Source: Jimgerdemannia flammicorona
Lineage: Eukaryota
Assembly: GCA_003990765.1 (NCBI GenBank)
Contig: RBNJ01000176.1
Span: 1-37,862, forward strand
Direction of reading: 5' to 3'
Length of the DNA stretch: 37,862 bases
Below the pieces are notes generated by a model. The model had not been told where the DNA came from, searched no databases, and was given only the letters and a program-made list of their open reading frames with translations. Position 1 is the stretch's first letter. Every line of letters starts with the position of its first letter. The translations under genes were made by a program, and so were the position numbers. This document shows, one piece after another, positions 1 through 37,522 of this stretch.

Positions 1-54
1 ATAATCCCCACTACCATTCACCGAAACCGACTCAAGAAATATCATGGCCAGTAA
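1..54 (+). CDS. C-terminal tail of Ty3/Gypsy integrase (pol), 5' part outside the window
   Basis: Frame 1 reads IIPTTIHRNRLKKYHGQ*. This matches the HxNxLKxY end of Gypsy integrase (compare PVHTNCLKIY in element A). It is followed by an ORF, a PPT and an LTR. Confidence 0.75.
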   Translation: MIPTTIHRNRLKKYHGQ

Positions 55-505
55 CAAAAGTACCGCAATGGCACTCAAGATCACCAGTGCTGCCCAAAGA
101 GCCATCGAAAGACAATGGCACACCACCAAGCCTCCGACCATAGAGCCATTCTATGAGGATATTCAGAGTATTGTGCAGACTCATCTCTCTCGGATCTCGC
201 ACTTTAGAGCCTATCAATATCGAGCAGAATTCCAAGAGTACTTCAAGCTTGGACAGGTGCTCAATCAGGATCCATCAAAGACCAAGGAGGACTGGATTGC
301 CGAGTGTCAACTCTCCCACTCACAGATCACCATCACCAAAAGGATCCACAAGTTATTCCGGGAAGATGAACCAGCCATAGACCACCTGAGAGGAGTAACC
401 CCTACCGACTTTGAGAAAGTAAGGAGACATCATTGGGAAACAGTTATACAGCAAATTGCACAGTACAAAACCATACAGATGGTTGAAGCCTGGGAGTTTG
501 AATAG
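44..505 (+). CDS. Intact 153-aa accessory ORF of unknown function between integrase and PPT of an LTR retrotransposon
   Basis: Open ATG-to-TAG frame. The ATG overlaps the integrase end, and the stop lies 28 nt before the PPT. A decayed homolog occurs at 37028-37522. Confidence 0.8.
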   Translation: MASNKSTAMALKITSAAQRAIERQWHTTKPPTIEPFYEDIQSIVQTHLSRISHFRAYQYRAEFQEYFKLGQVLNQDPSKTKEDWIAECQLSHSQITITKRIHKLFREDEPAIDHLRGVTPTDFEKVRRHHWETVIQQIAQYKTIQMVEAWEFE

Positions 506-532: not shown

Positions 533-541
533 AGGAGGAAG
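533..541 (+). other. Polypurine tract
   Basis: AGGAGGAAG lies just before the LTR start TGTGAC at 543. Confidence 0.7.
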
Positions 542-542: not shown

Positions 543-1020
543 TGTGACGGTACAGCCAGATTTGAAAGAAGGAAATAGGGAATAGACACTTGATCACACC
601 CATTCCCAAAGTAGTATAGCATCATAGTTAGCAGCCCTTGATTTTGACATTGTCTAATTTCTTAGATATTGTCTAAATTTTAGACATTATCCAAATCGAA
701 TACCCTGATTTAGTATAGCATTTAGACATTGTCCAAATGTTTCGACAAAGTCCAAATGACTCATTTATTACTTAGCCACCCTCTTATAGCTAGCAAACTT
801 GTATAAATAACCCAGTATCTTCAAGTGAATAAACCTCAGATCGAAATAGTTCAAAAGCAAAGAGATAGCAAAGGAACTAGTAAGCCTGCAGGCAGATACA
901 CTTCGAACTCACCCACCCTCCCCTGCAACTTCAAGAAGACTCTGCGAGAGTCAGAACAGTCAAGTTTTCAAGATACAGAAATCCGACGTACTTTCAAGAG
1001 TAAGCGTCCGCTACGTTACA
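543..1020 (+). mobile_element. 3' LTR (478 bp) of a young Ty3/Gypsy element
   Basis: TGTGACG...CGTTACA inverted termini, TATA-like GTATAAATA near 801, AATAAA near 828. The core motif is shared with the LTRs at 16138 and 28679. CpGs are retained. Confidence 0.85.
642..757. repeat. Five near-palindromic TTAGACATTGTC(T/C)AAA-type motifs in U3 of the LTR
   Basis: Copies read ttgacattgtctaa, ttagatattgtctaa, ttagacattatccaa, ttagacattgtccaa and ttcgacaaagtccaa. Confidence 0.75.
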
Positions 1021-2040
1021 ATATATATCTATAAGTTTTTCTAACTAATGGTTTAAAATTTTGCAATTATTTTTTATTTTTTCTAACTTATATAAATATC
1101 TCAAATATTTGAGTAAATAAACTTTAGTTAGCTAGTTATTAGTTATTATAAAAAAAAAGAGTTCAAGTAAAGAACTTAATAATATATATATTACTAACTC
1201 TAAGATATTTTAGAAAATAATACTATTTTGAGCATAAGCTTAGAGTTAAAGTTGACAAACTTCTCTTACTATCTCAGAAAACTACTAAGAAAAAAAACTA
1301 CCATTGAAACCAAACTCTAGAAATAATCTAAGAGATCAAAAAATATACTTAGAATTTGCAAAAATAATTATCAAAAACTATACAAATACTCTATTAACTT
1401 AGAGAAGAATTTTAAATAATATGAATAAGCTATTATTATTCTAAATAATTAATTATATAACTAATTATTCAAATATTAACTTTAATTAGATATAAATAAA
1501 TTAAATATAATATTGAGTTAGAGTTAGTATAAAATATAAAGATATAAGTTTATAGAGATAACTAAGTAATATATTGAACTATATACTAGTTATAAGAGTT
1601 TTAAATTATATACTATAATATTTAAATTATTTATAATAATTAACTAATTTTAATTAATAGTAGATTAATTTACAATTATATATTATATATATTTTATTAT
1701 TATTCTAAAGTAAAAAAAATTAAAATTTAATTAATAAATAATTATCATACTTACTATTTTAATAATATTTTATTTATAAGTTTTAAATAAATAAAATAAT
1801 ATATTTCTTAATATAATTTTATAATCTATAGATATCTTATTTTAATTATAATAGATAAATTAACAAAAATAAAATATTTTAAATAAATATAAAAATATTG
1901 CTTATTACTTCAGAATTAAGTTCCAACTTATTTAAATAATTATATTATAATTACATACTACTTTAATGAAATATTTTTGAGTAATGCTTGATCTATTTGA
2001 AGTATTAAAAAATAAGTATAATAAGTATTTTGTTCATACT
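1021..2040. other. Extremely AT-rich eroded tract, probably an old mutated repeat
   Basis: Very low GC, TA-rich, essentially no CpG, no ORFs of 60 aa or more. Confidence 0.6.
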
Positions 2041-2522: not shown

Positions 2523-5272
2523 TTATCGCAAATAGAAGCTCTGCACCACCATCTTTTTCCCCGCCGTCTCCGTGACGTCCTCGCCCGGCGCCTCGACCAC
2601 GTACCGAATCTCAATGTCTAGTTCGCGCGGGTTGTCGAAGCCCTTGCGGCAGTTGAAGGTGCCTTGGAGGGCCGTGCCTGGTGTCGGGATAGCGAGTAAA
2701 AAACAATGTTAGCAAACAAGTCACGGAAGGAAAACACGTTAAAAGAGTCAGAATGTAGCAGGAAGAGGAAAGGGTAACATGCAAGAGTAGATACTCACCC
2801 TCCTCCACGTCCAACCCCTTCTCCAAAACGAACACGGTCTGCTTCCAATGCGTGTCGAAAGCCGCCGGGCCCGTGGTAAAGAACGTCTCACCCTCCTTCG
2901 CCTCATCGCCTTGTTTGAGCGGGATTGCATGCCCGTCCCTCGTGAACCAAGTATCGAACCACCCGACGAACGCGTGGATCGTGCCCTTCTTATTCACGAC
3001 GAGCTTAAATGGCGTAGAGAAGTCCAGCTGCTTCTTGGTGATAATCTGCAACGGTAGATCTTTGACGGTGACGATGTCTGTGACAATGGACCCCGGCTTG
3101 ACGAAGTCGACCACAGCCTCGCTCAGCGTCGACCTCTTCATGGGCGACATCTTGAACCCATACACATCGTCCCAGAAGTTGTACTGGTCGTTTTTGAAGT
3201 CCTCGTCGTCAATGGCGGCGAGGAGGACACGCGTCTGCGAGGGGGCGAGGATGCCGCCTGGGGCGAGGAACCGGTCGCGAGCCACGAGGACCGAGTCGAG
3301 CATAGCCTCGTACAACAAGAAATAACCCATCCACTCCGAGATGATGATGTCAACCTTGGCGACGGGGAGGGTGATCTCCTCCACCCTGCCGCGGATCAGC
3401 GTGATCACGTCCGAGAGGCCGTTCTCGGCAACAATCTCGCGTGCCTTCTCGATGATGCCAGAGTTGTCGACGGAGAAGATACGCGCGGCGCCAGAGCGAG
3501 CGGCAAACATTGAGAGGATGCCCGTGCCGCAGCCAACGTCCAGCACGGTCTTGCCCTTGAAGATGTCCTTGTTCTCATAAATGAAATCTCGGTAAGATTC
3601 GGTGCGGACGCGGTCTTTAAGCATAGATTGATGGATTTCTGTTTTTCATGGGTTGGTAGCAAAAAGATCATGAATATAAATTCTTTGTTCCTCCGCCACA
3701 CTCATAATTAGTAATCTGCCCATACTACTCTGACGCTTACCGTTATGGGCATAAGAGTTAAAGTAGTAATTGCCATCATCATCGAATCCTGTAAAGCCGC
3801 TGCGCAGACTCAGGGAGCGTTCACTATATGCGCAAGAAAAAAAAAAAAAAAAAAAAAGCCAGCTGTGAGATCGGCCATCCTTTGAACTCATGACACAACC
3901 TCACTTTAAATATTCACATATCCTCATTACTATTCACATTTCCCCTTCCCATCCCTGCCGGCCCAATCTCCAAAAGCTACGAGCATACCGACACCTACCT
4001 CCTTAGATCGTCCGCCATTGAGTCAAAGAAGGTGGTTTTCACCATGGCGCGGTACTCGCCGTACTGCATCTCGACGCGGCGCAGCTGTTCTTGCGTCGCG
4101 CGCAACCGCGTCAGCAGTTCGCGCTCCAAGTCTGTTGTCGGCTTGTACTCCTCGTCCTCGGCCACGGCGCGACAGCCGAACGCGGCGGTGGAGTCGTCGT
4201 CGGCGAATTCCGAGTCCAAGTCGAGATCCTCAAAGGCTAGAAGGTGGGATGTATGGCAAGACACATATATTCAGATGGTGGTGTCAAAGGAAATTTCTCA
4301 CTCTCCATATCCCATGCGCCTCGCCCCGCCCCTCTGTTCCGTCGTTATCTGCCCATTTACAGCGCCTTAAATCCCACCCGTGCCAAATCACACCTTTAGT
4401 CACAACCTACCATACAGCAGTGTGTCATCCTCCATTACGGGTCTGAGCAAGTCATCGTCCTGCAGGAACTCCTCCTCGCCTGTTACCTTGAACTCGGTCG
4501 TGTTCTCAAACTCGGAGTCATTGGTAGCTAGCCGCCGTATGTGGTTGATAAGACGAACAGACTGGTAGAAGTCGAGTTCTGAGTGCCAAAAATCAGCCAA
4601 TTGCGCCATGTCATTGAGTCGTGTGCAATGCAACTTCCTCATAACGACAGGCTCCATCATCAGTTCACCCAAAAATAATTTCTTTCTGTCCGTCATGCCC
4701 GCCGTTTGCGTTCTCTACAGTTTCAGTCTGCGTTAGAAATACTTACTCAGGTCCTGTCGTGTCTTGAGGAAGTCGAACCCATGCGCTGCGGTGCAGTGAG
4801 CGAAAATCTCGGCAGCCTCCGGGAAGAGCTGTGCGCAGAAGAGGCATTTGGGATCTGCTTGCACATTCTCTTCGTCCTCTTCCCAGTCGTCCCACGTGTT
4901 GTCTACAATGAAGAAATGGAATGGGAAAAAAGAGAGTGAACCGGCGGGTGACGATAACAGTCTCGCAATGCGAAACTTGATCCACACATTGCATTCACGC
5001 GTACCTGCCGGATCCAGCTCTGACTCGGTATACTCGGACGGGACGTACTGAGGCCCAGGCCCGCGCCAGCCCTGTGGGAGATTAAGCAGGTGAGTGTGGG
5101 AGGATGAGGCAGGCCTCTGCTGGAATTGTTGCTGCAGCTCGCGCTGGCGCTCAGCAACCTCTTGCTCGGCCTTCAATTTCTGAATGGGGTTCTGGACAGC
5201 ATCGGAGCCCGGATGAACGGGGACGGCTTTGGAAGCTTCATAGGCAGCTGCGGTGCGGGAGGGGAGGCGCAT
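2523..5272 (-). CDS. PRMT3: Protein arginine N-methyltransferase 3 (PRMT3/Rmt3); exons 5272-5005, 4902-4747, 4578-4411, 4236-3999, 3823-3741, 3638-2799, 2677-2523; 1908 nt, about 635 aa
   Basis: All six introns are GT-AG with consistent phases. The protein has an N-terminal C2H2 finger (CLFC...HCTAAH), LDFYQSVRLINHIR, YFNSY, motif I VLDVGCGTGILSMF, double-E loop IISEWMGYFLLYE and the THW loop. The zinc finger distinguishes PRMT3 from PRMT1. Confidence 0.93.
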
Positions 5273-5641: not shown

Positions 5642-6211
5642 AACACATATAAATTTATATATCATATTTACAATTTAAAAGATTATTAAGTTAATTAATA
5701 TTATTAAGATATTTAATATTTAATTATAAATATTACTTAGATAATAGCTTAGTATAAATATTATTAAAAATAAAATATCAAAACTTCTATTTTATATTAG
5801 ATTAGAAAATTCAGAATTAATATTTATAAATATCTTAGATAAACTTATATTTTTATTTTGTTAAAATCTATAATTAAAACTTTATTTAAATTTTATAATT
5901 ATAATTTATTTATTATTAATTTAACAAATAGTAATCTAGTTATTATTTTTTATATTTAGTATAATAGTTGATTTAAATTAGGAATATAAATCAGAGAAAT
6001 AAATATTTGATCATAATATCTAAATCTGATTCTCAAATATAGTATAGTCTTAGGAATAGCAGTTATTTTACAAATATTAAAGTTTTTACAAATATTAAAA
6101 TTTCACAGATATTAAATCTTAATAATTGTCAAAGATTTAATAGATATTAAGAATTAATACTTGTGAAAAGTAACTTATAGGAAATATACTCATAATTTAG
6201 TCATCTTATAG
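5370..6211. other. AT-rich eroded tract with a (TA)n microsatellite near 5614-5641
   Basis: Very low GC, no long ORFs, TA dinucleotide run. Confidence 0.6.
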
Positions 6212-7643
6212 TATAAGAGAGTTACTTATTAGAGTAACTGTTATATAGTTCTGAAAGAATTTTCTAGAAGTTCTGGATATTCTAGAAGACTGTTTTCTAA
6301 AGGTCAAGATCAATTTCATATAGAGTACATCCTCTATACTTATTGATTTCAAGATCAAGTTGATATCTCAACTAAAGTCCTTTTTCAGACTAGTTCTGAA
6401 TATTCAGAATTTTTCATATTTCAGGAAGTTTAAGAAACTAAGACTAGCTTAGTTGAATCAGTATATCACTGCAGACAATACCCAATTAGGAAATTTTATG
6501 ATATGGTTAGGAGTGAGACCTAATAGGATACAGATTTACTTAAAAGTAATTTGTGGATTATTAAATAGATTTATACACTATTTATGATATTACTATACTA
6601 AGAGTATTATGTGAAGAGATATTATAAAGAAGTGTTCAGAATTGTTCTTATCTGTTCAAGTCTGAGATTCTGAGGTCTGAAGGAGGGGATATTTATACTA
6701 ATGGAAGACTATCTGAACTAGGCTAAATATAGATATAGCACTTAGTATCTTGCTGAGTTAGTTTGTAGTCATATTATATAAGACTAATCTAACTATACTA
6801 ATGCCTGCTAAGCTATTTATAGGTTTAGACATTATCTGGATAGTCTTCAATGATATCATCTTTGATGACATCATCTCTAATAATATCTGAGTAGTTTTCT
6901 AACTTCTGATATCATCAATTTGAAAGATATCATTATCTCTATCTCTTGTAAATTAAAGCTATCCTCAGTAGTAATAGTTATACAAGAATAACAGATCTTG
7001 GTTCTCTTTTTTTTTTGAACTATTAGTGTATTTGCAAGGACTGACCATTCTTGTCTAGAGTGAGGGCCCTTATTGTTGTGGCTGGGGGTTCAAATCTCTC
7101 AAAAATAATATTTTCTATAATCTGAGATAATTTCTAATAGTAATATCTATCATATAGATAAACTTGAGATTGGTTTTGACAATGTCAGCTTTCTTGAGTT
7201 CAGATAAAACATCTATTATTCTCTAATAAAGGTGATACAAATAGAGTGAATGAAGTTATCCAAATATATTTTACTTCTGTTAAGTAATAAGGTCTTATAT
7301 AGTTACAGTATATCTTAGTTTTGAGTTGATAAGTATAGTTCATGAACCTTTGGTAGATGAGATAGATTCTTCTCATTTTGGTTTGAGTTTGATACTTTAG
7401 TTTTCTTTTATAATAGTATAGTATATCAAAACTAATTATAGAAGTTCAGAGTCAGTCTTATAGTTGTAGTACTTTTTCTGGTATTCTTATATGTATCTTA
7501 GTAGTAAGTTCTCATACTTGCTGGTATATTTTGTATAATCAGGTAATCTCTTCAGTAACTTGTTTTGTGATCTTATATGTGATTTCTAAATTAGTTCTGA
7601 GGGTGATATGTGATTTTGGTGGCTTGGAGATTATATACTTACA
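6212..7643 (-). mobile_element. 3' LTR of element C (about 1.43 kb)
   Basis: Minus strand starts TGTAAG right after the PPT and ends CTTATA (CTTACA in the 5' copy). Colinear with 7833-10650 and 13859-16137. Confidence 0.8.
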
Positions 7644-11205: not shown

Positions 11206-11423
11206 TTGTCTGATCCAATAGTAGTGATTTTAGTTATAAGAGCTTTCTTTCTGTTGGTTCTCCTTTAGACCAGTTTATTGATATAAGAGAAGCAATCATC
11301 AATCATTTAAGAAGAATACATTTTAATGCTATAGAGGCATCAGTCACTTGGTATAAATCTATTTTTGATTTTCTTGTAGAATTATTCTTCCTTACTTGTG
11401 GTAGATTGGGCTGGTGTCTTGTT

Positions 11424-11832
11424 TGATGAGCTAAATCCTCTGGATCCTCAGATAGTAGGTAGTAGTTTAGAGACTTCTTTGACTATCAGAGTTGATTTAA
11501 TTTTCTTAAATAGGATCTAGGCAATACAGAAACCAATGGAGATCTTAAAGAGTATCCAACTATAGTTTTGAATAAGGATAATGATTTTGCCTATATAATC
11601 CTCATTAATAACTCCTCCTTCTACTGAGAGTCCTTTCAATACTAGGCTGCTACAGCAGTATATTCTTCCAATATGTTCTTTAGGGATTTGAATGCTGATT
11701 CCTGTGTAGACTTGCTTGACTTCTTAGTTGGAAACTATAGCTTCTTCAGCTGTATATAGATCATATCTAACTGCTTTTTGACTTCCTTTGGTTAGAGTCT
11801 TGGCAGTTTGCCTTAATTTGATAAAGTTCAGT
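11424..11832 (-). pseudogene. dUTPase of element C, between gag and protease
   Basis: All five dUTPase motifs in decayed form: AVRYDL, GRIYCCSSL, GGVINEDYIGKI, CIA*ILF, *GSRGFSSS. Confidence 0.85.
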
Positions 11833-16137: not shown

Positions 16138-17250
16138 TGTGACAAGCCAAGTACATAACCAGATGACATGAACTTTCAGCATAAATATAGTTACCTAGTT
16201 ACCCACTTATAATTAACTCAAATACCAAATCTGTACACCTGTCTCAAGTGGAACACCTGTTCTAAGTAGAACACTCATCCCAAGTGGAATATCTGTTCCA
16301 AGTGAAATACCTGTCCCAAGTAGAAGACTATTACCAGAAATAGTAGGCCTATAGTCAGCCTTATAGTAACCAGATAGCAACCAACTTGTATAAATTACCC
16401 CAGAAGCTAGAGTGAATAAACCTCAGTTCGAAATCAAAAAGCAGGAGCTTCCTTTCCCACTCCAGTTACAAAGCTAAAGATTTGTTACCAAGTTTGAGGA
16501 AGAACTTTGCCACCTTTTGAAGAGAAACCCGCCACTTAAGAAATAAGCCACATTTTCAAGTTATTTACTGCTATTCTTGCTACAAGCCAGTCTTTCTGAT
16601 GCAACTTTGCAGTGGAGCCAGTTTACGATGTAACCCCACACAAATGAAGCCAGTCTTTGATATAACTTGCCAAGAATTCGAGTTAATTTCCAGTTAAAGT
16701 CACTGATTTAGGAAAATCTGCGACATCTGAGTTATTCATTGTTCCTAGTAAGCCTGAGTTATTGAGTTATCTGCTGCCAGTACAAATCCCAGTGAACCCA
16801 CACCCAATTTGAGTTATTTGCTAAATTATCAGAATGTTCTACATAAGGAACCTATCACACTACATGGAATTGTTACCCAGAAATTACATACTTTTGGAGA
16901 TCATCGCACTACACAGAAATCATCCACCATCCAAGAAGGAGAACTGCTAAATTGCCAGACCATCATGTACAAGATCATCATGCTATACAAATTCTGCTAT
17001 TCCCAGTTGACCCAAGAAGGAATCCTATTCATATATAAATTGCTGCTATACTCAGAGAACTGACCCAATTAGGAAATCAACATACAATTAACTGCCATAT
17101 TCAGATTTGACTATTATATCACTAAACACTAAAGGACTTCAGAAATCTTAGAACATTTTGTTACTTTTGAACAAAGTAACTGGGGGCTCAAGCCAAATTC
17201 ACACATTTCCCAACCTTGTAATTTGCCTCTATTGAGCTGAGCACATTACA
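16138..17250 (+). mobile_element. 5' LTR of element A (1113 bp)
   Basis: TGTGAC...ATTACA termini, TATA and AATAAA near 16388-16420, followed by the PBS. Confidence 0.85.
16235..16324 (+). repeat. 5 x 18-bp tandem repeat (consensus ACACCTGTCCCAAGTGGA) in U3 of LTR A
   Basis: Units start at 16235, 16253, 16271, 16289 and 16307. Confidence 0.85.
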
Positions 17251-17252
17251 TT

Positions 17253-17270
17253 TGGGGGCTCAACTGAGAA
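17253..17270 (+). other. Primer binding site, tRNA-Pro-like
   Basis: TGGGGGCTCAACTGAGAA resembles the tRNA-Pro PBS TGGGGGCTCGTCCGGGA, mostly by transitions. The element B counterpart is at 30021. Confidence 0.65.
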
Positions 17271-17299
17271 GATTTCAAAATCGATATGACTTTTCAGCT

Positions 17300-18700
17300 C
17301 ACAACAAACTGGATACATTTGATACAACACCAACTTCTGTCACTACAGGAGAACCTGTCATAACTAGCATTTGGACAGGAAGAGAAGTAATCATCTCAAG
17401 ACTTGCCAACTACTCAGTATCAGAAGGATCCCAATCAGAAGTAGGAGGCAGTACAGTCAGAAATCTACAACCAGATCAACCAGACAATATAGGCAGCCCT
17501 GCTAGAGATTTTGGAGAACTTGTATAAGAACTAGAAGACCTCATCACACAGATCCAATACTTTACAGCCAGACAGCCCACACCAGTCCCACCAATCTCAC
17601 CAATAGAACCCCTACCACAACCCCTTGCAGGACCAGAAGTAGCTCCTACAAGAATACCTAGGCCTATTCCACTCTGTCCAAGGACCAGAACACCATCTTC
17701 AAGATACCTAAGTACTCCCATCTCTAGTGACAGTTCAGAAAGTGAATCAGAATCAGAAGAAAGTGATGATGAAATGGCCACCTCATTGCCAATCTTTGCA
17801 GGATACCCAGAGGAAGACCCCAGAGAATTTCTTGATGGAATTGAAGGAATTGCAGCCTTAAGAAATCTCTCGGATAAAAGAAAAATTGCTATCTACAAAG
17901 CTCAGCTCAGAGAACCAGCCAGAGGGATTTTCTATTGAACAGCAAACAACTGAGATTCAGAACTAGTAAGACAGATACAAGCAGCAATGTCTGATGAGCT
18001 AGAATATGAAGCCATGGTGCATTGGCTCATCAAAAATATGCAGGAAATGAAACCCATCACAAGGCTCAGGAATCCATCATGGGAATGAAGATGAATCTCG
18101 GAGAATCACCCAGAGCCTTCTTTACAAGAATCCAGAAGAGAATGCATTCTGCCAAGTTCAATACCACCAACCAAGACATCATAGGTCCAATGATCTTCAT
18201 AAATAGAATTCCCCCAAATATTGCCCAGCATGTCTGCACCCTAGGTATTAGAAGATCTGAAGAGCAAGTAGATATAGCCCAAAGATTCTTTGATGTCAGG
18301 CAAGGAACTACCTGGAGTGATCATGATAAAAAGGAAGATAAAGAAGATATTCTGATCAAAGCCCTGCAAGGACTCCTTCAAGGACAAGAAAGATCTGAGG
18401 AAAGAAGGCCAGCCAACGAGTGGAAAAAGGAGAAAAACGAAATCCAAGATCTCAACTCAAAACTAGACCAATTGGTGGGTCAGATTGAAAAACTCACCAC
18501 ATGCAAAAATCAGAACTATCAGCCAGACAACAGGGGATATCAACCATGAAGGAACCAGGACTACCCCAGAGACAACAGGAGCTACCAAGAAGAAAGAAGA
18601 TATTCCATCTGAGATAGAGTCCAAGTCCAATGCTTCCACTGTAGACAATTCAGACATTATGCCACAGAATGTGACAATAAAAGAAATGACCAAAGGAGCT
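17300..18700 (+). pseudogene. gag of element A
   Basis: LPIFAGYPEEDPREFL capsid start and zinc knuckle CFHCRQFRHYATEC at 18631-18672. Confidence 0.8.
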
Positions 18701-20935
18701 CTGAACCACCAAACCGAAGGAATGAAACCCAGTACAAAAAGACAGAAGCACATTCTGTTGAAGATTTCGAAGAGAGTGACCGAGAAGAGTACAGTGACCT
18801 AGATCTATACCCAGCTAAGGTCATCAGCAGGAAGATAGTATACCCAGCAGAAAAATGAAAGAGACCCATAGGAAGGCCTTCTAGGAATACCAGCAGAAGA
18901 ATCATTCAAGATGAAGAGGAGGAAGACAAACAGGATCAAGTTGAAACACCTCCTTGGTCACCTTCACCTTTAATCCCTGAAACAAGCAAACTACCCCCAG
19001 AAGATGAAGAAATGGAACAAGAACCCACTCCTCCAAAGCCCAAGAAGAAGTATACCCCAAAGATCATACCCAGGGATATCTACGATGAAGTCTGGCAAAA
19101 GATTCAAGAAGTCAAGATGGAAGTTCCTCTCTTGCAGTTCTTGCAACTAACACCTGCTGGAGTCTGAAACAAATTGTTGAGAACCACAAGGTCTAGCACT
19201 GGCCAGGTCCCAATCCCATAGCAAGAGCCAACCCCTATCCAAGCTGCAGAAAGACATATCTGCACATATCTGCATGGAAACATTGGAGGACAAAAGGCGA
19301 AAATTCTCATAGATATAGGAGCAGCTGTCTGTGTGATCTCCAAATGATTCCTGGACAGCCTCCAATGGCCCATTGATGGACCATCCAATCTCAGCATCAT
19401 AGTAGCAGATGGAGCCCGAACCCAACCCCTTGGAGAAGTCTGAAACATCACCATCTCTCTAGGACACATTCAGTTCTCAATCCCAAAAGCTGTTGTCACT
19501 GAAGCTATCACCTATGATATGATCCTAGGCATGAATTGGATAGAGGAAATGAATGCAGTCATAGACATTGGCCAATAAGTCCTCAAATTCGACTACAGAG
19601 GAAAAAAGTACAGAATGAAGGTCACCAGCTATGAACAGTCAAAGAAGAAAAAGAAGGTTACCATTCAAGAGAAATATGCCAGCAACAAAGAATCCACCAC
19701 AGAAGAGGAAGAAGAATCTGAAGATGGGAAAAATCCCAGACTTAGCCATGAATTAACCTAGTAAATAATAGGCTAGAAGACAATGTATGGCCAAGAACAC
19801 TATCCCCATCACCATTGGAGCCATTGCAGGACAGATCAAAGGATGCCCTACATGCCTCAAGAGACACAAGTGCTCTAAGCACTCATCCAAGATCATTGGA
19901 ACTTGAAAATCACCTGGCACAGCCTGCTATAAGTGCAGAAGAAAGAAGAAGAAGTGCAATCATCTTCCAAAAATACCTATAGATGAAGCAGCAGAAGTAT
20001 AAGCAATTTGAGATCAAGAATCATCTGAAGAAGAAGTGTCTGAACAAGAAGAAGAAGCAACTGAACAAGAGGTCTCTGAACAGGAAGAACCACCAGAACT
20101 CATCCCCTGGGATGATCCCCACTGGACACCACCTGAAGATGATGATGAGCCCTGGAATATTGAAGAAGGACTAAGTACAATCCCTGTTATCCAAAGGCAA
20201 GAAACACACCAAGAGAAAGCCTTTCAGATAGGAAGATGCCAACATCAAATGACCTTCTACTCTCCTCAAGACTACTGCTATGAATGCCACCTACTGGATC
20301 AATAAGAAAGACAGGGACCTGTGTGACCAAGAGTCTCAATGACAATCATCCAGTCAATTACCTTTCAACAAGCAACCTCACATTTGAAAGAACGAGCTAT
20401 TGGACATGGTATATTCATCCAAACAGAAATCCAGCCCCTGATAACAATGTCTCCAATCTATGATGAAGAAGGATATCGATTCCCTAAACAAAAAGAAATC
20501 GCTGATCAGGAGTCATATTCTCAAGTAATGAGATATTGCAGCCATGGAAGACACCCAGATTGCAGAGACTGCTACCACCAGAAGATCCATCTTAGCCAAG
20601 ATATTGCTATACACACATTGAAGAGAGGAGATGGTAGAATGCAGACCTGAAAAAGTCAAAAGAAGTCGAAAAAGAAGACTCTCAAGATCTATAATCTAGG
20701 AGAAGATATCCTGGCCTTAATCAGACATGCAACTTGTGAAGGAATACTAGATGATGCTATCAACTTCATGGAAGCCCTAGATCCAATGGGAAAAAGAGGA
20801 ATCAACTACCTCTGAGACCCTTCCACTGGAGCCAGATGGCCCCACCTCAATATCAGAGCATGGAGATTTACCACCATTGGAGCCTCAGCACATGGATAGC
20901 TGAAACTGAGTAAAGACATTGCCCAATATGTCTTG

Positions 20936-21324
20936 CTGCACCCTCAGGCCAAACCACTGACCAAGGCTCACCAGGAGGATGTAGGCTATGACCTTTATAG
21001 TCTGCAGGATCAACCAATCAAGTCTGGAAGAACTGTAGTATTCAGAACTGGACTAGTCATGTAGCCACCCAAAGGAACTTACATCCAATTGACCTCAAGG
21101 TCTGGACTAGCCAAGCAAGAAATCACTGTGAAAGGAGGAACCATAGACCCAGGATATATAGGCAAAATCAAGATTATCCTGAGAACAGTAGTACTAAATG
21201 GTGCCGAATTTTCAGAGAATAAAGGATTGCACAAGCAGTCTTCATGAAGGCCAAGACTCCCCAGCTGCAAGAAGTTCATGAACTGATCCAAGGAATAAGA
21301 CAAACCAAAGGATTTAGAAGCTCA
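20936..21324 (+). pseudogene. dUTPase of element A, between PR and RT
   Basis: DVGYDL, SRSGLA, GGTIDPGYIGKI, RIAQAVF, RQTKGFRSS. Confidence 0.88.
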
Positions 21325-24300
21325 GATAAGAAAGAAGTATACCTCCTCCAGGTCAACCATTTCAAAGAAAATGCCCCCCAGTAAGTACTCTGCCAACCAG
21401 TCAGAGTGTACAAAAATGTCATCCTGGAACCAGGAGAGCAAACAACCTTCGAAATCTTTGCCCAGGAATCTTTTCTTTGAACCCATTGAAGACATCAAAG
21501 GACTGGAGATAGAAGGACACACATTTCCAGACAAGATGAATCCAGTGCACTCCCGAGCAATCAACCAAAGTTGGGGAAACATCATTCTGCCAAAAGGAAC
21601 CATCATAGGACATCTGGTGCCATATCTCAACTGAGCATACCAAGAGGTCTATGAATTGAACCTATTGGGAAATGGCAAAAGGTCCCAGAAGAAAGGAAAG
21701 GCCCCTCTGCGACCCAGGAGAAAGTAAAGCCTTCCACTAACATTGGAGAAGAATTGACATCTCAGCAGCAACAACAATTGATAGAACTTTTGCATAAATA
21801 TCAGGACATCTTCATCACAGATTATGGCAACCTGCCATACAATCCATTATATCACTACAGCATAAATACAGGAAATGCGACACCCATCTGGCAGAAACCT
21901 TATAGAATACTCCATCATCTGAAAACATTTGAGAAGGAACATATTCAGGAACTCTTAGACAATAGAGTCATCCGACCCTCCACCAGCCCATGGGCTAGCC
22001 CTATACTTATTGTACCCAAGAAAGGGGGATGGAGACTCTGTGTAGACTACAGGAAGCTCAACTCAATTACCAAAAAAGATGCTTACCCTTTGCCTCAGAT
22101 TGATGACCTTTTGGATCAACTATAAGAAGCCAGATACTTCAGCAGTATGGATCTTTTTGCAGGATTCCACAAAATCCCTATAGACTCCAAAGATATCTAG
22201 AAAACAGCTTTCCTTGTCCTAGAAAAACTGTTTGAATACACTCAAATGCCCTTTGGACTTTGCAATGCACCATCCACCTTCCAGAGAATGATGAACTCAG
22301 TATATGCCCCACTGATTCAACAATGCTTGATCATGTATGTGGATGATTCCAACATCTACTCAGCAAATTTTGAAGACCATCTACAGCACCTAGAGGAATT
22401 CTTCAAGCTCACCTACAAGAACCACCTGAGGCTCAATTCTAAGAAATGTTACTTCAGGAAACAGAAACTTGAATTTCTTGGATTCATAGTTTCAAAAGAA
22501 GGAACATATACAGACCCAAAGAAAACCAAAAAGATCAACAACTGGCCAGTCCCCAAGACCCCAAAAGAAACACTATCATTCCTGATGCTAGTGTCCTACT
22601 ACAGAAGATTCATCAAGAACTTTGCTCAAATTACCACTCCAATCCGAGCCCTTCTCAAGAAAGGAGTGCCATACAAGTGGACAGAATCCCAAGAACAAGC
22701 ATTCAAGGAACTCAAGCACAAAATGACAACAGCACCCATTCTTGTGTGACCCAATCTACAGAAGCCATTCATCCTGTACACAGATGCTTCTAAAGATGGT
22801 CTTGGTGCAGTTCTAGCTCAAGAAGAATCAGATGGCCTATACTATGTGATAGCTTATGCAAGTCAAGCTACCAATCAGCAACAAGCCAATTATGGCAGCA
22901 CCAAACTAGAATACCTTGCAGTCATATGGGCAGTAACCTTGTTCAAGCATTACCTTATAGGAAAAAGATTCACTTTGATAACTGATCATGCTGCCTCAAA
23001 TGGCTATTCAACTGCAAGGATCCCTCTGGAATCTTGGCCTACTGGATTCTTATCTTGCAAGATTACAAAATCACCATCATCCACAAAGCAGAGAAAGCTC
23101 ACAATAATGTAGATGTGCTTTCCTGCCAGCTCTAATGAACCAGAAGAAGGGTGTCCCGAGGAACTACACTCTGAAGGAAGCTCCTCAAACCATCAAGATA
23201 CAAGAAGATCTTATCCAAAATGAACACCAGAAGGCCCACCAAGGACAATCAAATGAAGAAGAAAAGCTGTGAGCAACATATCAATATTGGCCCAATCTCC
23301 AAGCATAAGTTAGAGACATTCTCAAGAAGTGTGATATCTGTCAGAAGTACTAAGGAAAGAAGAATTATCAAGCACCACTCCAGCCAATCAAACCACTAGA
23401 CAACATCTTTCAGAGATGGGGAGTAGACGTTATTGGACCACTACCAGTGATACCAAGAAGGAACAAATATATTCTAGTATTTGTTGAACATCTGACCAAA
23501 TGGCCTGAAGCTTTCCCAATGGAAATTGCTAATGCCCTGACCATTGTTGGCCTCCTCCATGGTCTGACCCTCAGATATGGACCCCCTGAAGAACTTATCT
23601 CTAACCAGGGCACAGAATTCATCAATAATGTGATTACAAGTTACACCTGAATTCACAAGATCCACCTCAAAAGGACCATATCATACCACCCCCAGACTAA
23701 TGGCATGACTGAACAAATGAACCAGACCATCAAGAAAGAACTTGCCTGAGTCAATCCTACCAATTGGGACCTCTGCTTACCTGAGATCCTATGGGAAATT
23801 CGAAATACCCCAGCTGCCTCTACCAAACAAAAGCCATTTGAGATGATGTTTGCCAAGAAGACAAGAACTGCTGACCATGAGAACCTTGGAGGCCTCCTCA
23901 AAAAGGCAGAATAGTTATGTAATCAAGCCTGAGACCAGATAATCAAGGCTCAAGAAAGACAGAAGAAGTACTATAATCAAAAGCAGAAGGATCAGAAGAT
24001 CAAGATTGGAGATCAAGTACTAGTCTGGAGAAGTATGATTGAAACAAACTTTGCCACCAAACTGGAGCCCAAATGGAAAGGACCTTATCCTGTGCACAAT
24101 ATCAGAGGAACCAGCATCTATTTAAGAAGTATGGATGGACGAACTCTGAGGACACCAGTACATACCAATTGCCTCAAGATATATCTCTCCCCACATTATG
24201 AACTTCAGAATTGTACTGATAAAGGGTGGGTGTTCTAGAGTTCTGAAATCCCCTGCACTCATCTCCCTTTTTTTTTCTCCTCTTCAGATAATCACTCTCT

Positions 24301-25519: not shown

Positions 25520-26090
25520 GCAGTTTGGAGTTATCTCTTTGCTGCTGGTTGAGAGCTACAAATTTTGCATGCTCTCTCCACTAACCCTGCTAACCTCTGG
25601 CTCAGGCACAGGCTGCTTGGGGGTGCCTCATACTACTGGCAGAGAGCTACAAATTTTGTACACTCCCTCCACCTATCCTGCCCCCTCCACTAATCCCCCC
25701 TGTTCTAGATACTTATGGCTTAGGGCTGCCCCTTGCTGCTGGTAGAGGGCTACAAATTTTGTATACTCCCTCTGCTGACTCTGTACCCACCAACCCCACT
25801 CACTGACCTGGGTACTGATAGCTTGGGGCTACCTCTTACTGCTGGCAGAGGGCCACAAATTTTGCATACTCTCTCCATCTACCCCACCCCCTCTGCCAAC
25901 CCCCCCATCCTGGACACTTATGGCTTTAGGCTACTCCTTGCTGCTAGCAGAGGACTGCAAATTTTGTACACTCTCTCTGCTGACCCCACACCCCCCAACC
26001 CTGCCCACTGACCTGAGCACTGATAGCTTGAGACTGTCCCTTGCTACTGGCAGAGGACTACAAATTTTGCATGCTCCCTCCACTACTACC
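25520..26090. repeat. Six tandem units of about 103 bp with core GGCAGAGGGCTACAAATTTTG
   Basis: CAAATTTTG cores at 25559, 25650, 25753, 25856, 25958 and 26061, in alternating A/B variants. Confidence 0.85.
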
Positions 26091-27376: not shown

Positions 27377-28678
27377 AAAAAAAAAATCTTCAATTATCCA
27401 AAACAAGTTGCATCAGCTGACCAATAAAAAGAATGCATACCACAGCAAACTCCAGTGTATACCGGATCATTGTAAATGTTGAGTTCCAATGTATACAGAC
27501 ATCTAATATAAGCTCTTTTGGGGCTAAACTGATTGCTCTATACTGTATAGTAAATTTGTCTTGTTATTGTGGAGATGATTGAACTAATACAACCAGTTTA
27601 CACAGCTTAAAAACTATACTCAGGGCCCCTCCTCTCTCAGATGTTTTGTCTATATGTATAAGATAGTCCTGAATAATGAGGTTCAGTACATGGGCCTGGT
27701 ATTGTATATAGCAGCTTTCTGTACTAAAGGTTATATTTTCCTGTTTAAGGCTGGCTGCTAAAACTTGGAAAAATATTGAGTTATTTGTAGCATTATTTGT
27801 CATAATGATCAAAATCTGTACTTAAAATATTCAGTCAGTAAATTTATATGAATTTAAAAAACCAATAAAATCTTTTTTATTTTAGGACTTCTCTCAAAAT
27901 GCTGATCTGATGGTAAGTCCCTCATTTTTACCTTAGTTGTGATCCTAAGCTCTCAGATATAACTAATAAAAGTATCTGTAATATTGTCTCTAGAATGAGG
28001 ACTAGTAAGTTTGACAAAGTCAAGAGTGAGAGATTTAAGCTATCAATCAAGATCAATCCAATAACTAATAATGCCCAGAAATGAAATTATATTGAGAGAT
28101 GTCCATGTGTTAATCATAAATGAAATTTTGTCTGCCAAATTCTACTTATTGAATGTGAGATTAAATTGGTGAGCTCTTTATAAATATATATATATATAAT
28201 TCAGCTTGCAAAGGTTATAGTGCTGTCCTTATTTATTTATTTTACCTGAAGTATTTAGCAGAGATTATCATGCTCCTTCCTATAGGCCTCTAGGACATCT
28301 TTGTGAATAGTATCAGTATTTGGTAAATATAAATCATACTTAAGGAGACTAAAGATGCTATGCAATTGATCACTCTCAATAGTTATGAATAGCTGGTCTG
28401 TGTACACAATCTAGTGAATGAGCTGATTTTGAAATTCTGCCAAAGAGTATTGCTAAATATTTTTGATTAAATAGAGTTGTTGGTACAGAAATAGTCAGGC
28501 AGTCAGATAAATATACCCACTATAGCTTAGATATCAATTTTATTTGTCTCTGTATTCTTTTTGATTTTGTTAGAGTATTTGTCTTTTATGTATCAATATA
28601 TGTTCAAAGTCAAACTACTAAGCATTTTGAACTTCTAGCTGTGTAGTTTATGGGAGTAGATGAAACAGTATCATGTAT
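26250..28678 (-). pseudogene. Intron-containing hAT transposase relic, 5' part displaced by element B
   Basis: KISFMINTWTS...FLGI.SYWID, IMTNNATNN, AHVLNLIIQD, HWNST, VLDPYLK, and the dimerisation motif FPSL.SM..DYLAIPATSTPIEQMFS. A GT-AG intron lies near 27816-27931. Confidence 0.85.
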
Positions 28679-30018
28679 TGTGACAAACCACAAAATGTAG
28701 CAATCTTGAAACCTAACCAGGTGACATGAATATTAGTATAGCATAGTAACCAGTAATCATTACTATAGAAAATGTATAAATAACCAGATAGCCAAAAAGG
28801 GGAATAATGTGAACAGTGGCTGTCCCCTGTAGCTATCCACCCAAACACACTATAAATAGCAAATCTATAGTTAGCCAGATAGCAACCAGATAGTAACCAT
28901 AATGTATAAATTACTCCAGAGATAAGAGTGAATAAACCTCAGTCTAAAATTGAATCCAAAAAGTAAAAGACAAGTCTGCCTACTACACTTTGAGAGATAC
29001 ACCTGCCTAGTACTCCCAATGAATCGAATCAAATCAAATTTGACCCAAACTCAATTCGATTTAATCAAATCAAGGGTCCAATTCAATTCAAATTAATTCA
29101 AATTGAAAAATCCCCAATTTGATTTGACTCATTTAACTCTCAATTCAATTCAATTCGAATTGATTCGACTTGTTTGGGAGCACTACACCTGCCAAAAGCC
29201 ACTTGATTCAGGAAGGATTGCAATACTTAGGAGAAATGCCTGCTCTAAAGCCACTACTAGGAGATTGTGAGCATTGGTTCCCTTTTTCCACTCTGGTCCA
29301 CTTTCTGATATAAAGAACAAGTCCATTTTTGGTTCACTTGCCAGATAAGTCTGAAGATTTGTTGCCCAAGTTCAAGGAAGAACTTTGCCACTGTTTCCCA
29401 GTTGAAGCTACTAATTTAGGAAGAATCTGTACAATTCAAGTTAATTCTCAGTTGAAGCTATTATTTCCAAGTTATTTGTATTCCCAGAAGAACCCAATTC
29501 ACACTATCTAAGTTTCCATGACATCCAAGTTATTTGTTCCCAGTGAGTCCAAGTTATTGAGTTATCTACCGCCAGTATAATTCTCAGTAAGCTGCCATTT
29601 CAGAGAAGCCATGCCAAATCGAGCCATCTACCAGAAATCACATACTTTTGAAGATTGTCACACTATACAGAGATCACCTATCACTCAAGAAGGAGAACTG
29701 CTAAATTGTCAGACTGTTACACAGAGATCATTACACTATACAAAATTGTAGTATTCCCAGTTGACCTAAATAGGGAACCTGCTCACACTATACACAAATT
29801 GACTGCTACCCAAGAAGAAAACTACTCATACAAGCTGCTGCTATATCCAAGAACCTGTCTCAAAAAGGAAACCACTTACACAGTATCCAGATCTTGACTA
29901 TTATACTGCTAAACACCAAGAACATTTTGTTGCTTTTAACAAAGTAACTGAGGGTTCAAGCCAAACTGCATCAACCCCCAACCTTGTAATTTGCCTCCAT
30001 TGAGCCAGGCAAGTTACA
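28679..30018 (+). mobile_element. 5' LTR of element B, containing a MITE
   Basis: TGTGAC...GTTACA termini, followed by PBS-like TGGAGACTCAACTAGGAA at 30021. Confidence 0.85.
29008..29185. mobile_element. 178-bp hAT-family MITE
   Basis: TIRs TAGT(A/G)CTCCCAA, an exact 8-bp TSD CACCTGCC (29000-29007 and 29186-29193), and internal AATC/ATTCG short repeats. Confidence 0.92.
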
Positions 30019-33000: not shown

Positions 33001-33750
33001 ATTATCTCCAAGAAAGAAACTCACCAAGAAAAGGCTTTTTAGCTAGGAAGATGTCCATATCAAATGGTCTTCCACTCTCTCTAGAACTACTGCTATCAGT
33101 GATATTTACTAGACCAACAGGAGAGACAGAAACCCCAGAGACCAGAACCCCCAAATATAGTTGCACAGTCAACTACCTTCCAAGAAGTTACCACTAAGTT
33201 GTAAAGCTGATGCAGGGGATAAGGCTTCTTCACCCAGACAGAAATATATCCCTTATCTACTCTTCCACCCACTTATGACTAAGATGGGTACTGATTCCCA
33301 AAACAACAAGAGATTAATAACCGGAAACATCATTTCTGAGCAATGGGATATTGCAACCATAGAAGACACCCAGACTGCCGAGACTGCAGGCATCAGATGA
33401 TCCATCTCAGTCATGATGTTGCAGTTCACACCTTGAAGAGAGGAGATAACTGAAGCCAGATCCGAAAAAGCCAGACCAAAAAGCCAAAAAGAAGGACCCT
33501 CAAGATCTATGATTTAAGAGAAGACATCCTAGCTCTCATTAGACATGCAACCTACCAAAGATGGGTAGAAGATGTCACCAACTTCATGGAAGTCCTAGAC
33601 TCTATAGGAAGAAGGAGAATCAACTATCTCTGAGATCCCTCTACTGGAGCCAGATGGCCACACCTCAACCTTAGAGCTTAGAGGCTCTCCACTAGTGGAG
33701 CTTCAGCCCTAGGAAAGCCCAAACTCAGTAAGGATATTACTCAGTATGCC

Positions 33751-34143: not shown

Positions 34144-37027
34144 GATAGGAAGGAAGTACACCTCCTTTAAGTCAACCACCTCAAGAGGAATGTTCCCCAG
34201 CAAGTGTACTGGCAACCAGTCAGACTGCACAAGAATCTTATCCTAGAGCCCAGAGAACAAACAACCTTCGAAATATTTGCACCACCCAACCTCAGAAATC
34301 TTTTCTTTGAACCCAAGGAAGATATTCCCCATCTGGACATAGAGGGATACACATTCTCTGACAAGATGAATCCAGTATACTCCTGAGCAACCAATCAAAG
34401 TTGGAAAACCATCATCTTGCTGAAAGGAACTATCATAGGACATCTGGTGCCTTTTCTCAACCAAACTCATAGAGAAGTTTATGAACTAAACCTATTGGGA
34501 AATAGCAAAAGGTCCTAGAAGAAAGGAAAGGCCTCTCTGCAACTCAGGAGACAGTGAAGCCTTTCACTAACATTGGAGAAGAATTGACACCTCAACAACA
34601 GTAACAACTAGTAGAACTTTTCAACAAATATCAAGATATTTTTACTACTGATTATGATAACCTGCTATACAATCCATCATATTACCACAACATAAATACA
34701 GAAAATGTAACACCCATCTGGCAGAAACTCCTATAGAATACCCCATTACTTGAAAACATTAAAAAGGAGCACATTTAAGAACTCTTAGACAATGGGGTTA
34801 TCTGACCCTCTACCAGCCCCTGGGCTAGCCCTATACTTATTGTACTAAAGAAAGGAGGATGGAGACTTTGTGTGGATTACAAGAAACTCAATTCAGTCAC
34901 CAAAAAGGATGTCTATCCTCTGCCCAGAATCAATGACCTTTTGGATCAGTTACAAGATACCAGATACTTCAGCAGTATGGACCTCTTTGCAGGATTTCAT
35001 GAAATCTCCATAGACTCCAAGGACATTCAAAAGACAGCCTTCCTTGCTCTAGAAAAACTGTTTGTGTACCTCTGAATGTCCTTTGGACTTTGCAATACAC
35101 TCTCCACCTTCTAGAGGATGATGAATTCAGTCTACACCCCCTTGATCCACCACTGCCTAATTGTATATATGGATGATTCCAACATCTATTCAGCAAATTT
35201 CAAAGAACACCTGCACCACCTAGAGGAATTCTTCAAGCTCACCTACAAGAACTACTTAAGATTGAATACAAAGAAATGCTACTTTGGAAAACAGAAATTT
35301 GAATTTCTTGGATTCATAGTTTCAAAAGAAAGAACCCATACAGACCCAAAGAAAACTGAGAAGATCAACAATTGGCCAATATCCAAAACCTTGAAGGAAA
35401 CACTATCATTCCTGATGCTAGTATCCTACTATAGAAGGTTTATCAAGGACTTTGCCCAAATCACTACCCCAATCTGAATCCTTTTCAAAAAAGAAGTGCT
35501 ATTCAAATAGACAGAATCACAAGAAAAAGCCTTCAAAGAACTCAAAAACTGTATGACTACAGCACCAATCCTTGTGTGCCCCAATCTACAGAAGCCATTC
35601 ATCTTATATATAGATGCCTCTAAAGATGGCCTTAGAGTAGTTCTAGCCCAAGAAGGACCTGATCAACAGCACTATATGTTAGCTTATACAAGTAGAGCTA
35701 CCAATCAGCAGCAGATGAACTATGGTAGCACCAAACTGGAATATCTTGTAGTCATATGGGCAGTTACCCTGTTCAAGCATTACCTTATCAGAAAAAGGTT
35801 CACTCTGATCACAGACTATACAGCTCTCAAATAGCTATTCAACCATAAGAAATCCACCAGAATCCTAGTCTGCTGGATCCTTATCCTTCAGGATTACAAA
35901 ATCACCATCATCCACAAAGCAGAAAAGCTCACAACAATGTTGATGTACTTTCCTGCCAGCCCCAATGAATCAGAAGAAGAGTGTCTCAAGGAACTACACT
36001 CTAAAGGAAGCTCTCCAGACCATCAAGGCACAAGAAGATCTCATCCAAAAAGAACATCAGAAAGTCCACCAAGGATAGGCAAATATAGAAGAGAAGCTGT
36101 GAATAATACACCAACACTGGCCCAACCTTAGAGCACAAGTCTGAGATATAGTTAAGAATGTGACACCTATCAGAAGTACTAAGGAAGGAAGAACTATCAA
36201 GCACCACTGCAACCAATTGTACCACCAGACAACATCTTTCAGAGATGGGAAATAGATGTAATTAGATCTCTACCAGTTACACTAAGAAGAAACAAATATA
36301 TCCTTGTACTTATAGAACATCTAACCAAGTGGCCCAAGGCTTTCTCAATGGAAATTTCAGTTATCTTAACCATTGTAGGTCTTCTCTATAGACTCACACT
36401 CAGATATGGACCCTCAGAAGAACTTATCTCTAACCAAGATATAGAATTCATCAATAACATAATCACAAACTATGCCCAAATTCACAAGATCCACCTTAAG
36501 CAGACTATATCATACTACCTGCAGACCAATGGCATGACAGAGAGAATGAACCAGACCATTAAGAAAGGACTTGCCTGAGTCAATCCTACCAGTTGAGACC
36601 TCTGCTTACCTGAGATCCTATGGGAAATTTGGAACACCCCTGCTACTTCTACTAAACAAAAGCCATTCAAAATGATGTTTGCTAAGAAAACCAGAATCGC
36701 TAACTATGAGAATCTTGGAGACCTCTTCAAGAAGGCAGAACAGTTATATAATCAAGCCTGAGGTCAGATTATCAAACCCCAAGAAAGACAGAAGAAGTAC
36801 TATAACCAAAAACAGAAGAATCAGGAGATCAAGATTGGAGATCAAGTACTAGTTTGGAGAAGCATGATTGAAATAAATTTTGCTACCAAACTGAAACTCA
36901 AATGGGAAGGACCTTATCTTGTATACAACATTAGAGGAACCAGTATCTATTTAAGAAGTATGGATAGATGAACCCTGAGAACACCAGTATACATCAATTG
37001 TCTCAAACTATATCTCCCCTCTATACT

Positions 37028-37522
37028 ATGAGCCAAAGGATTGATCAGTGACTCCAGACATTAGTCCTCAGCTCCTTCCAGGCCCTACCAGTTCCCTTAC
37101 CCCAGTTCTGTCAACTTAAAGGAACTCCAATACAATTAATCCAGAAGCATCAAGAGAACCTTGCCATTGTCCAAAGATTGTTATAGATCCACCATCTATA
37201 GGCCTTTGACAATATTGAATAATTACTTCAAGAACAGTCATACATTAGAGGACTAGCTGGCATAACCTGCTGAGAAGAAAAAACTGCCAAATGAATCTAC
37301 ACCTTGTATAAATGAAATTTTGGAGCCCTGGTGCAGTCTCACTTCTACCTCAATGATATTCATCAGATGAATGAGACCACCTTTCAGAGTATTCTTCAAC
37401 AGGTAGATATTCTGTTCTCTGAAGGACAAGAAGAAGATCTAGAGCTAGAATGTAGTGACTCTGGTACAGACAATGAAGATGATAGAATGGGTATAGATGT
37501 AGAAGCAGCTTATGCTTATTAG
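37028..37522 (+). pseudogene. Decayed accessory ORF (165 codons) downstream of integrase, homologous to ORF 44-505
   Basis: A single frame from the ATG at 37028. Seven internal stops, each one C-to-T step from CGA, CAG or CAA. No frameshift. Confidence 0.75.

Follow-up and report, generated by a model that had tools for sequence, protein, structure and literature searches.

What does a fungal long terminal repeat (LTR) retrotransposon encode when a third open reading frame (ORF) stands between the end of its integrase and its polypurine tract (PPT)? Fungal LTR retrotransposons are normally described as gag-pol only, and the question is raised by the left end of a contig of Jimgerdemannia flammicorona (GenBank assembly GCA_003990765.1, contig RBNJ01000176.1, positions 1 to 37,862 of the forward strand; this whole stretch of 37,862 nucleotides (nt) is referred to as the window). 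Here, an intact frame of 153 codons, termed ORF3, occupies positions 44..505 of the plus strand in frame 2, from an ATG at 44 to a TAG at 503-505. ORF3 is probably a genuine, selected gene of a Ty3/Gypsy element, expressed from its own AUG and encoding an element-specific accessory factor, and it is kept in copies that share as little as 22% amino-acid identity. As such a third gene is kept under purifying selection, the element would need more than gag and pol, for example for regulation, targeting or defence.

The layout around ORF3 is that of the 3' end of an LTR element. Positions 1..54 (plus strand; translation in frame 1, tblastn) encode the last 17 codons of pol, i.e. the C-terminus of the integrase (IIPTTIHRNRLKKYHGQ, stop TAA at 52-54), and the integrase end of a related element, L001, matches window positions 1-84 with 68% identity (tblastn; E 1e-8). 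ORF3 overlaps the pol end by 11 nt in frame +1 relative to pol; its ATG, flanked by A at -3 and G at +4, lies 8 nt 5' of the pol stop, and its frame carries an in-frame TAA at 2-4, 13 codons upstream of the ATG. The ORF3 stop is followed after 27 bases by the PPT (AGGAGGAAG, 533..541, plus strand, read from the sequence), itself two bases 5' of a 3' LTR of 478 bp (TGTGAC...GTTACA, 543..1020, plus strand). The string that joins PPT and LTR start, TTCAGGAGGAAGTTGTGACGG, is identical in the window and in L001 and in both comes after ORF3. The end of the LTR is independent of reading by eye, because contigs from three of four public runs (X1, X7 and X2) exit the window after 1020/1021 into a sequence resembling a primer-binding site (PBS), and because L001 carries the same LTR-PBS junction at about 534-560; this PBS-like continuation is TTGGTGCCCATTGG in the three runs and in L001. 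Several hallmarks of LTR elements are present, namely an LTR bounded by TG...CA, a PPT preceding the 3' LTR and a PBS-like sequence following the LTR. Within the LTR, a TATA-like TATAAATA (802-809, plus strand) and an AATAAA (828-833, plus strand) were read by eye. An earlier reading made from the sequence alone (the sequence-only reading) had described an intact 153-residue frame between integrase and PPT, and its placement holds at these coordinates.

The class of the element can be read from L001, a single locus of 6479 bases from a metagenome scan that represents an almost complete element. Its parts are ordered gag, protease, dUTPase, reverse transcriptase, RNase H, integrase, ORF3, PPT and LTR, and Pfam recognizes, in order, zf-CCHC, aspartyl protease, dUTPase, RVT_1, RT_RNaseH and Integrase_H2C2. 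The arrangement gag(CCHC)-protease-reverse transcriptase-RNase H-integrase that defines Ty3/Gypsy elements (Metaviridae) is therefore found on L001, the window itself holding the last 17 pol codons only. The dUTPase lies between protease and reverse transcriptase (L001 2715-3100, protein residues 625-752; Pfam E 3e-28), and no Chromo match was obtained with Pfam at E<=0.01 in either the L001 integrase end or ORF3, so that the mark of chromoviruses is lacking there. The element lineage is Ty3/Gypsy without an integrase chromodomain and with a dUTPase between protease and reverse transcriptase. Precedents for these features are given in the relevant parts of a survey of fungal Gypsy elements, in which dUTPase is recorded in elements of Postia, Phanerochaete and Tuber, with a position between protease and reverse transcriptase in PosPlaTy3-5, and in which the Ylt1-like and SN_1006 lineages are listed as non-chromodomain (Novikova et al. 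2010; PMC2864245). In L001, ORF3 (5795-6256) again has 153 codons, shares 68% protein identity with the window ORF3 and overlaps the pol end in frame +1; the locus is flawed in other parts, with stops in gag and in the integrase and a change of frame ahead of the integrase. Each end of L001 (1-534 and 6224-6479) consists of an ORF3 end, PPT and LTR. As these two ends are only 79% identical, two family members may either stand in tandem on this contig or have been joined into a chimera during assembly.

Several lines of comparison indicate that ORF3 is translated and constrained. A word-indexed protein search returned nine database proteins 62-81% identical to ORF3, six of which begin at the first Met of the window frame; P0006 and P0007 begin at an internal Met (residue 33), P0001 has 153 residues, P0001 and P0006 both end in EAWEFE, and the remaining homologs are clipped at the ends of short contigs. 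Two further 153-residue members came from cluster look-ups, and the full-length proteins keep start, length and end. Between the window and L001, ORF3 is 67% identical in nucleotides, with 35, 24 and 91 differences at codon positions 1, 2 and 3 respectively, and the proportion of non-synonymous differences (pN) is 0.20 against a synonymous proportion (pS) of 0.83; in the other two frames of the same alignment the ratios are 1.2 and 2.1. No dS ratio is given, because pS is saturated. The ORF3-bearing element is multi-copy in soil metagenome runs, and among the 20 variants listed within ORF3 in run contigs, 11 are synonymous and nine non-synonymous, compared to 93 of 459 sites (20%) being synonymous; 27 more variants over the whole 1030-base stretch fall outside these 20.

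A contrary explanation is that the frame is open by chance, or that what is conserved between pol and PPT is a cis-acting DNA or RNA element and not a gene. In LTR elements, plus-strand priming requires the region adjacent to the PPT in cis, and no RNA or protein evidence for ORF3 was obtained. However, a nucleotide element would not account for differences that concentrate at third codon positions, for pN being well below pS in this frame only, for the retention of length, start and end at 62-81% amino-acid identity, or for a second branch of the family that retains the core motifs at about 22% identity. This explanation is accordingly very improbable. Given the third-position bias, the low pN relative to pS and the excess of synonymous variants, ORF3 is, as judged from its substitution pattern, a translated frame under purifying selection in diverged copies. 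The sequence-only reading had held ORF3 to be selected and had proposed a dN/dS comparison among copies as a check; the comparison with L001 upholds it.

The protein family to which ORF3 belongs is small and has two intact branches. A HMMER scan of 1.84 billion representative proteins yielded four clusters only (at 50% identity) and no larger cellular family. One relative, P0018 (165 aa; 24% identity, phmmer E 4e-4), served as the seed of a second branch (P-type), comprising 11 proteins of 94-168 aa, with a full size of 152-168 aa. The branch that contains the window protein (A-type) and the P-type branch are linked by hhalign with 97.2% probability (E 3e-11, 109 columns), and the P-type profile matches the window ORF3 with E 9e-13. 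Despite an amino-acid identity of about 22% between the branches, the core motifs are retained: R100, L104 and F105 (window numbering) are invariant and EFQ at 62-64 nearly so, giving a common core of EFQ followed about 35 residues later by R-[IV]-[YH]-x-L-F-[RK]-[DE]-[DH]-x-x-A-[LI]-x-H. The C-terminal tails differ. P-type tails contain 9-12 D/E and 0-2 K/R in the last 30 residues (five proteins) and end in PPFIDFG...LDEWDL or similar, and EAWEFE ends all four full-length A-type proteins as well as P0006. No paralogy between ORF3 and the gag or pol of its element emerged from a profile search, in which the best of the other L001 chunks had an E of 0.64. The sequences thus define an ORF3 superfamily of at least three branches, namely an A-type of 153 aa, a P-type of 152-168 aa and the decayed element-B form considered below, and on the strength of these searches the family is without recognizable relatives outside its own element lineage.

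These searches also bear on the idea of a host origin for ORF3, either by capture of a cellular gene or as a cellular gene that happens to neighbour the element. LTR elements do capture cellular ORFs, as exemplified by the dUTPase here and by the esterase and exonuclease ORF3s described for rotifer elements in the pertinent part of one report (PMC5408684). Yet in the window as well as in L001, ORF3 is an internal part of the element, flanked by pol and PPT/LTR; in soil metagenome runs it accompanies a multi-copy element; and the 1.8 billion representatives searched with HMMER gave four small proteins and no larger cellular family; a host origin of either kind would be most surprising.

A third branch is represented by a related element in the same window. 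Two decayed copies of this element, B1 (16877-24190) and B2 (29631-37019), are 79% identical, and each contains a dUTPase-like region (20936-21187 and 33754-34149, respectively). In B2, the pol end with the C-terminal region of the integrase lies at 36699..37031 (plus strand; tblastn and sequence), and its TGA stop (37029-37031) overlaps the ATG of the next frame (37028-37030) as ATGA. The frame opened by this ATG (37028..37522, plus strand) spans 164 codons with seven in-frame stops and an acidic tail, and hmmsearch identifies it as a decayed ORF3 homolog. The sequence-only reading had proposed such a homolog in element B from two hand alignments, the element-B peptides of which (37136-37405, frame 2) fall within this 164-codon frame.

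The homology claim is right, its support coming from an intermediate family rather than from the hand alignments. No pairwise link exists between ORF3 and B2, the best non-self tblastn match of ORF3 against the window having an E of 0.77 and lying elsewhere. A profile comparison of the two ORFs, which the sequence-only reading had named as a test, gives 4.7 bits when the A-type profile is used alone (a score reached by 30 of 5000 shuffles), 9.7 bits with the P-type profile (one of 5000) and a significant 17.8 bits with the joint profile (none of 5000; hmmsearch). When the joint profile was run over 378 six-frame chunks of the window, B2 was the top non-self match (E 1.5e-4) and the next, unrelated match had an E of 4.4. 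The alignment places B2 residues 68-127 (nt 37229-37408) on profile positions 75-134, collinear with the start codon, and is confined to the C-terminal half. Of the two hand-aligned blocks, the second (TAK.IYTLYK ... FQSILQQV) is aligned likewise by the profile, and the first (LIQKHQENL...) finds no support; the original conclusion was in this respect stronger than its evidence.

The match also concerns one of the two B copies. Similarity between B1 and B2 ends exactly at the integrase end (24190/37019), and B1 lacks an ORF3-like region; as unrelated sequence sits where B2 has the ORF3-like frame, B1 was presumably truncated or recombined after the integrase. The claim that the homolog occupies the same slot stands for B2 on the integrase side, the PPT and 3' LTR of B2 lying beyond the window end. 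A search of the window for a PBS-like pattern of element B gave five matches with three mismatches compared to 2.6 expected, which is not meaningful. Just 3' of the ORF3-like stop of B2, about 10 copies of a palindromic 11-mer, GGATTCGAATC, are found at 37557-37664, together with inverted self-matches.

The three DNA contexts (window, L001 and B2) bear directly on how ORF3 would be translated. In all three, the ORF3 AUG has A at -3 and lies close to the pol stop, at 8 nt upstream of it in the window, 41 nt in L001 and 1 nt in B2 (ATGA); a restart AUG near a stop, as in termination-reinitiation genes, is thus present throughout. Relative to pol, ORF3 is in frame +1 in the window and L001 and in frame -1 in B2, and both the window and L001 carry an in-frame stop 13 codons 5' of the ORF3 ATG.

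These features also speak to the proposal that ORF3 is a C-terminal extension of the integrase, made by programmed frameshifting and serving as a targeting module in place of a chromodomain. The start of ORF3, directly behind the GPY/F-type integrase end, coincides with the place of the chromodomain in chromoviruses, and the short overlap with pol and the shared +1 frame in the window and L001 would suit a frameshift. Fusion is nevertheless unlikely: an ATG with A at -3 is conserved in three of three contexts, a shift would have to fall within the 39 nt that follow the conserved in-frame stop 13 codons upstream, and B2 has a -1 relation with an ATGA stop-start overlap. No longer or fused form scored among 76 candidates, and no protein above 268 aa with the ORF3 sequence turned up, although this is weak evidence. 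A complex prediction with the C-terminal piece of the L001 integrase and ORF3 returned a score of 0.00 and no verdict, and is not evidence either way. From the conserved ATG with A at -3, the upstream in-frame stop and the differing frame relations, we infer that ORF3 is translated separately from its own AUG.

Two routes to such a separate protein were considered. Stop-start genes translated by termination-reinitiation are familiar from RNA viruses, some of them fungal, including calicivirus VP2, influenza B BM2, pneumovirus M2-2, and the AUGA and UAAUG junctions of victoriviruses and hypoviruses, respectively. ORF3 resembles them in the position of its AUG, which ranges from right at the stop of the long ORF to about 40 nt 5' of it, with a literal ATGA in B2, and differs from them in that no promoting structure is detectable upstream and in that a subgenomic RNA would explain the ORF3 layout equally. 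The approximately 120 nt upstream of the AUG fold no more stably than shuffled sequences (z -0.05, 0.30 and 0.39 for L001, B2 and B1, respectively). Run X16, guessed to be RNA, covers the LTR and two ORF3 bins (176-245, depths 39 and 5) and not the rest of ORF3. Production from a subgenomic or spliced RNA has close to an even chance, and termination-reinitiation on the genomic RNA is a serious candidate, if somewhat short of even. With its AUG tucked against the pol stop, the locus provides a simple test case for termination-reinitiation in a retrotransposon.

The predicted ORF3 protein is hydrophilic, with a grand average of hydropathy of -0.71. Its highest 19-residue Kyte-Doolittle mean is 0.13, and this maximum does not exceed 0.89 in nine family members, far below the value of about 1.6 that marks membrane helices. 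Extra ORFs are env-like in insect errantiviruses and in some plant elements, and Env-like proteins have a signal peptide, transmembrane segments and several hundred residues; at 153 aa and with this hydropathy, ORF3 is not of this kind, in agreement with the sequence-only reading, which had seen no transmembrane stretch in it. That reading had also called the protein probably helical and unassignable to any family, and both descriptions are sustained. Pfam returned no family for the window protein at E<=10 and scattered weak matches for 21 family members (best E 0.01, in at most four members), PDB sequence profiles gave nothing better than E 0.1, and searches of the ESM Atlas led to unnamed or unrelated clusters only. 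Two AlphaFold2 models are all-helical, at low confidence (mean predicted local distance difference test (pLDDT) 53.3 and 54.6). With a model of this quality (pLDDT about 55), Foldseek returned nothing from PDB at E<=0.001, and VIA-align yielded generic helical hairpins only (Z<=5.7); a known fold may yet underlie ORF3, as model confidence is low.

Taken together, ORF3 is best read as a genuine selected gene with its own AUG, the product of which is probably a soluble accessory factor specific to the element. A number of points weigh against this interpretation. The DNA context comes from three copies only (window, L001 and B2), the approximately 25 other proteins deriving from short contigs; viral-contig scans and one genome-contig scan gave no further contexts, and the metagenome scan gave a single locus. 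That locus, L001, is a metagenome assembly that may be chimeric, given the 79% likeness of its LTR ends. The family is very small, with four clusters at 50% identity in 1.8 billion proteins, and the pLDDT values make the helical assignment itself soft. The acidity of the tail is not uniformly conserved, being far lower in the A-type, in which the last 30 residues contain five D/E compared to 3-5 K/R, than in the P-type. Folding of the RNA 5' of the AUG gives no greater stability than in shuffled sequences, and no reinitiation-promoting structure of a known kind is visible there. No listed holder of the stretch is recorded as RNA, and the four runs compared were all contigs, which display no starts, ends or splice joints relevant to ORF3.

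As for what such an accessory factor might do, the features of the protein, which is soluble and helical, conserved in its central motif and acidic-aromatic in its tail, suggest that it acts as an adaptor or regulator and recruits a host factor to the element. The helical body may dock on an element or host partner, and the acidic, aromatic-studded C-terminal tail (EAWEFE in the A-type, PPFIDFG...LDEWDL in the P-type) could recruit the host factor. The likeliest single role would be that of a regulator or adaptor, either as an activator of the element's own LTR or as a tether for the integration complex, between which the computations do not discriminate.

The first of these roles can be put in a more specific form, in which ORF3 would be a Tas/Tax-like transcription activator, its helical body binding 18-bp repeats in its own U3 and its production by stop-start reinitiation establishing positive feedback. 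The LTR in the window contains an 18-nt tandem array of 3.1 copies in U3 (641..696, plus strand; TRF), and arrays of the same period occur in the 3' LTR of L001 (6399-6479) and in the B1 LTR (16235-16325). All three stand upstream of a conserved TATA/AATAAA core (window 786-847 is 82% identical to B1 LTR 16374-16434), and their unit sequences are unrelated. The B2 LTR region (28500-29700) has no 18-nt-period array. In this model, the observed divergence of the U3 repeats among the three related LTRs would parallel that of ORF3 among the elements, and the acidic-aromatic tail would recruit host transcription machinery. ORF3 resembles foamy virus Tas/Bel1 as a small gene before the 3' LTR with an acidic, hydrophobic-studded tail such as activation domains have, accompanied here by tandem arrays in U3; it differs in showing no sequence or fold similarity, so that the likeness would be one of position and composition. 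The activator model in this full form is a long shot.

A different function, namely counter-defence by a protein that blocks repeat-directed silencing or mutation by the host, had been among the speculations of the sequence-only reading, which saw intense C-to-T attack on repeats in the window. Transitions do dominate between B1 and B2 (1048, compared to 330 transversions, in 7268 aligned sites). Repeat-induced point mutation (RIP) is commonly diagnosed by a high TpA/ApT index (about 0.89) and a low (CpA+TpG)/(ApC+GpT) index (about 1.03); these are 0.61 and 1.71 in B1 and 0.84 and 1.39 in B2, which do not reach the thresholds. The sole block tested that meets both is window 1021-2000, directly after the LTR, with 15% GC and indices of 1.19 and 0.59. 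The proposed attack therefore stands with respect to the transition bias and this RIP-like block, and does not extend to the B-copy indices. In position and size, ORF3 recalls retroviral accessory genes that act against host restriction, and the window copy is intact at 43% GC, next to repeats that are decayed and a RIP-like segment. Set against this, nothing links the ORF3 protein to a silencing component, the B copies formerly carried the gene and are now heavily mutated, and their dinucleotide indices are not RIP-like. A counter-defence role is unlikely, and the reading of ORF3 as an adaptor or regulator is preferred.

ORF3 can finally be placed among known extra genes of LTR elements. Bdelloid rotifer Vesta and Juno elements carry family-specific, non-envelope ORF3s downstream of pol, several together with a dUTPase, as set out in the sections of PMC5408684 that deal with them. 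These have several points in common with the present case: the rotifer elements are Ty3/Gypsy-like, their non-env ORF3s are lineage-specific, and some have no assignable function (PMC5408684, same sections). Those rotifer ORF3s that have been assigned are enzymes (GDSL esterase, DEDDy exonuclease) according to the same account (PMC5408684), whereas ORF3 here is small, matches no domain and belongs to another, probably fungal, lineage. A host among the soil fungi fits the occurrence of copies in soil metagenome runs, the dUTPase-bearing Gypsy elements known from fungi and the RIP-like AT-rich block at 1021-2000. In fungi, LTR elements are characterized as gag-pol with occasional inserted domains in the relevant portion of one survey (Muszewska et al. 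2011; PMC3248453), and Gypsy elements with an unexplained extra ORF are mentioned in another, the passage concerned giving neither element, position nor sequence of the ORF (Novikova et al. 2010; PMC2864245). Full-text literature searches produced such general reports of extra ORFs and nothing on the ORF3 protein, within a scope in which motifs were unsearchable and subscription journals and Repbase were not covered. The ORF3 family therefore appears to be undescribed and to fill the known role of an LTR-retrotransposon ORF3. No new principle is involved, as extra ORFs without known function occur in plant, rotifer, insect and some fungal LTR elements; being small, without a domain match and in no paper searched, the family nonetheless offers a clean entry point.

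The remainder of the window contains further repeats and one gene. A C-rich tandem repeat with a 103/205-nt period (2.3-3.5 copies) lies between B1 and B2 at 25615-26086, and a retroelement remnant on the minus strand has a dUTPase-like match at 11418-11783. The only clear cellular gene noticed in the window, for which the ESM Atlas returned mixed taxa, is PRMT3-like: a type I protein arginine methyltransferase gene on the minus strand (2611-3624 and 4733-5272), in which an exon-like ORF upstream encodes a C2H2 finger of the PRMT3 type.

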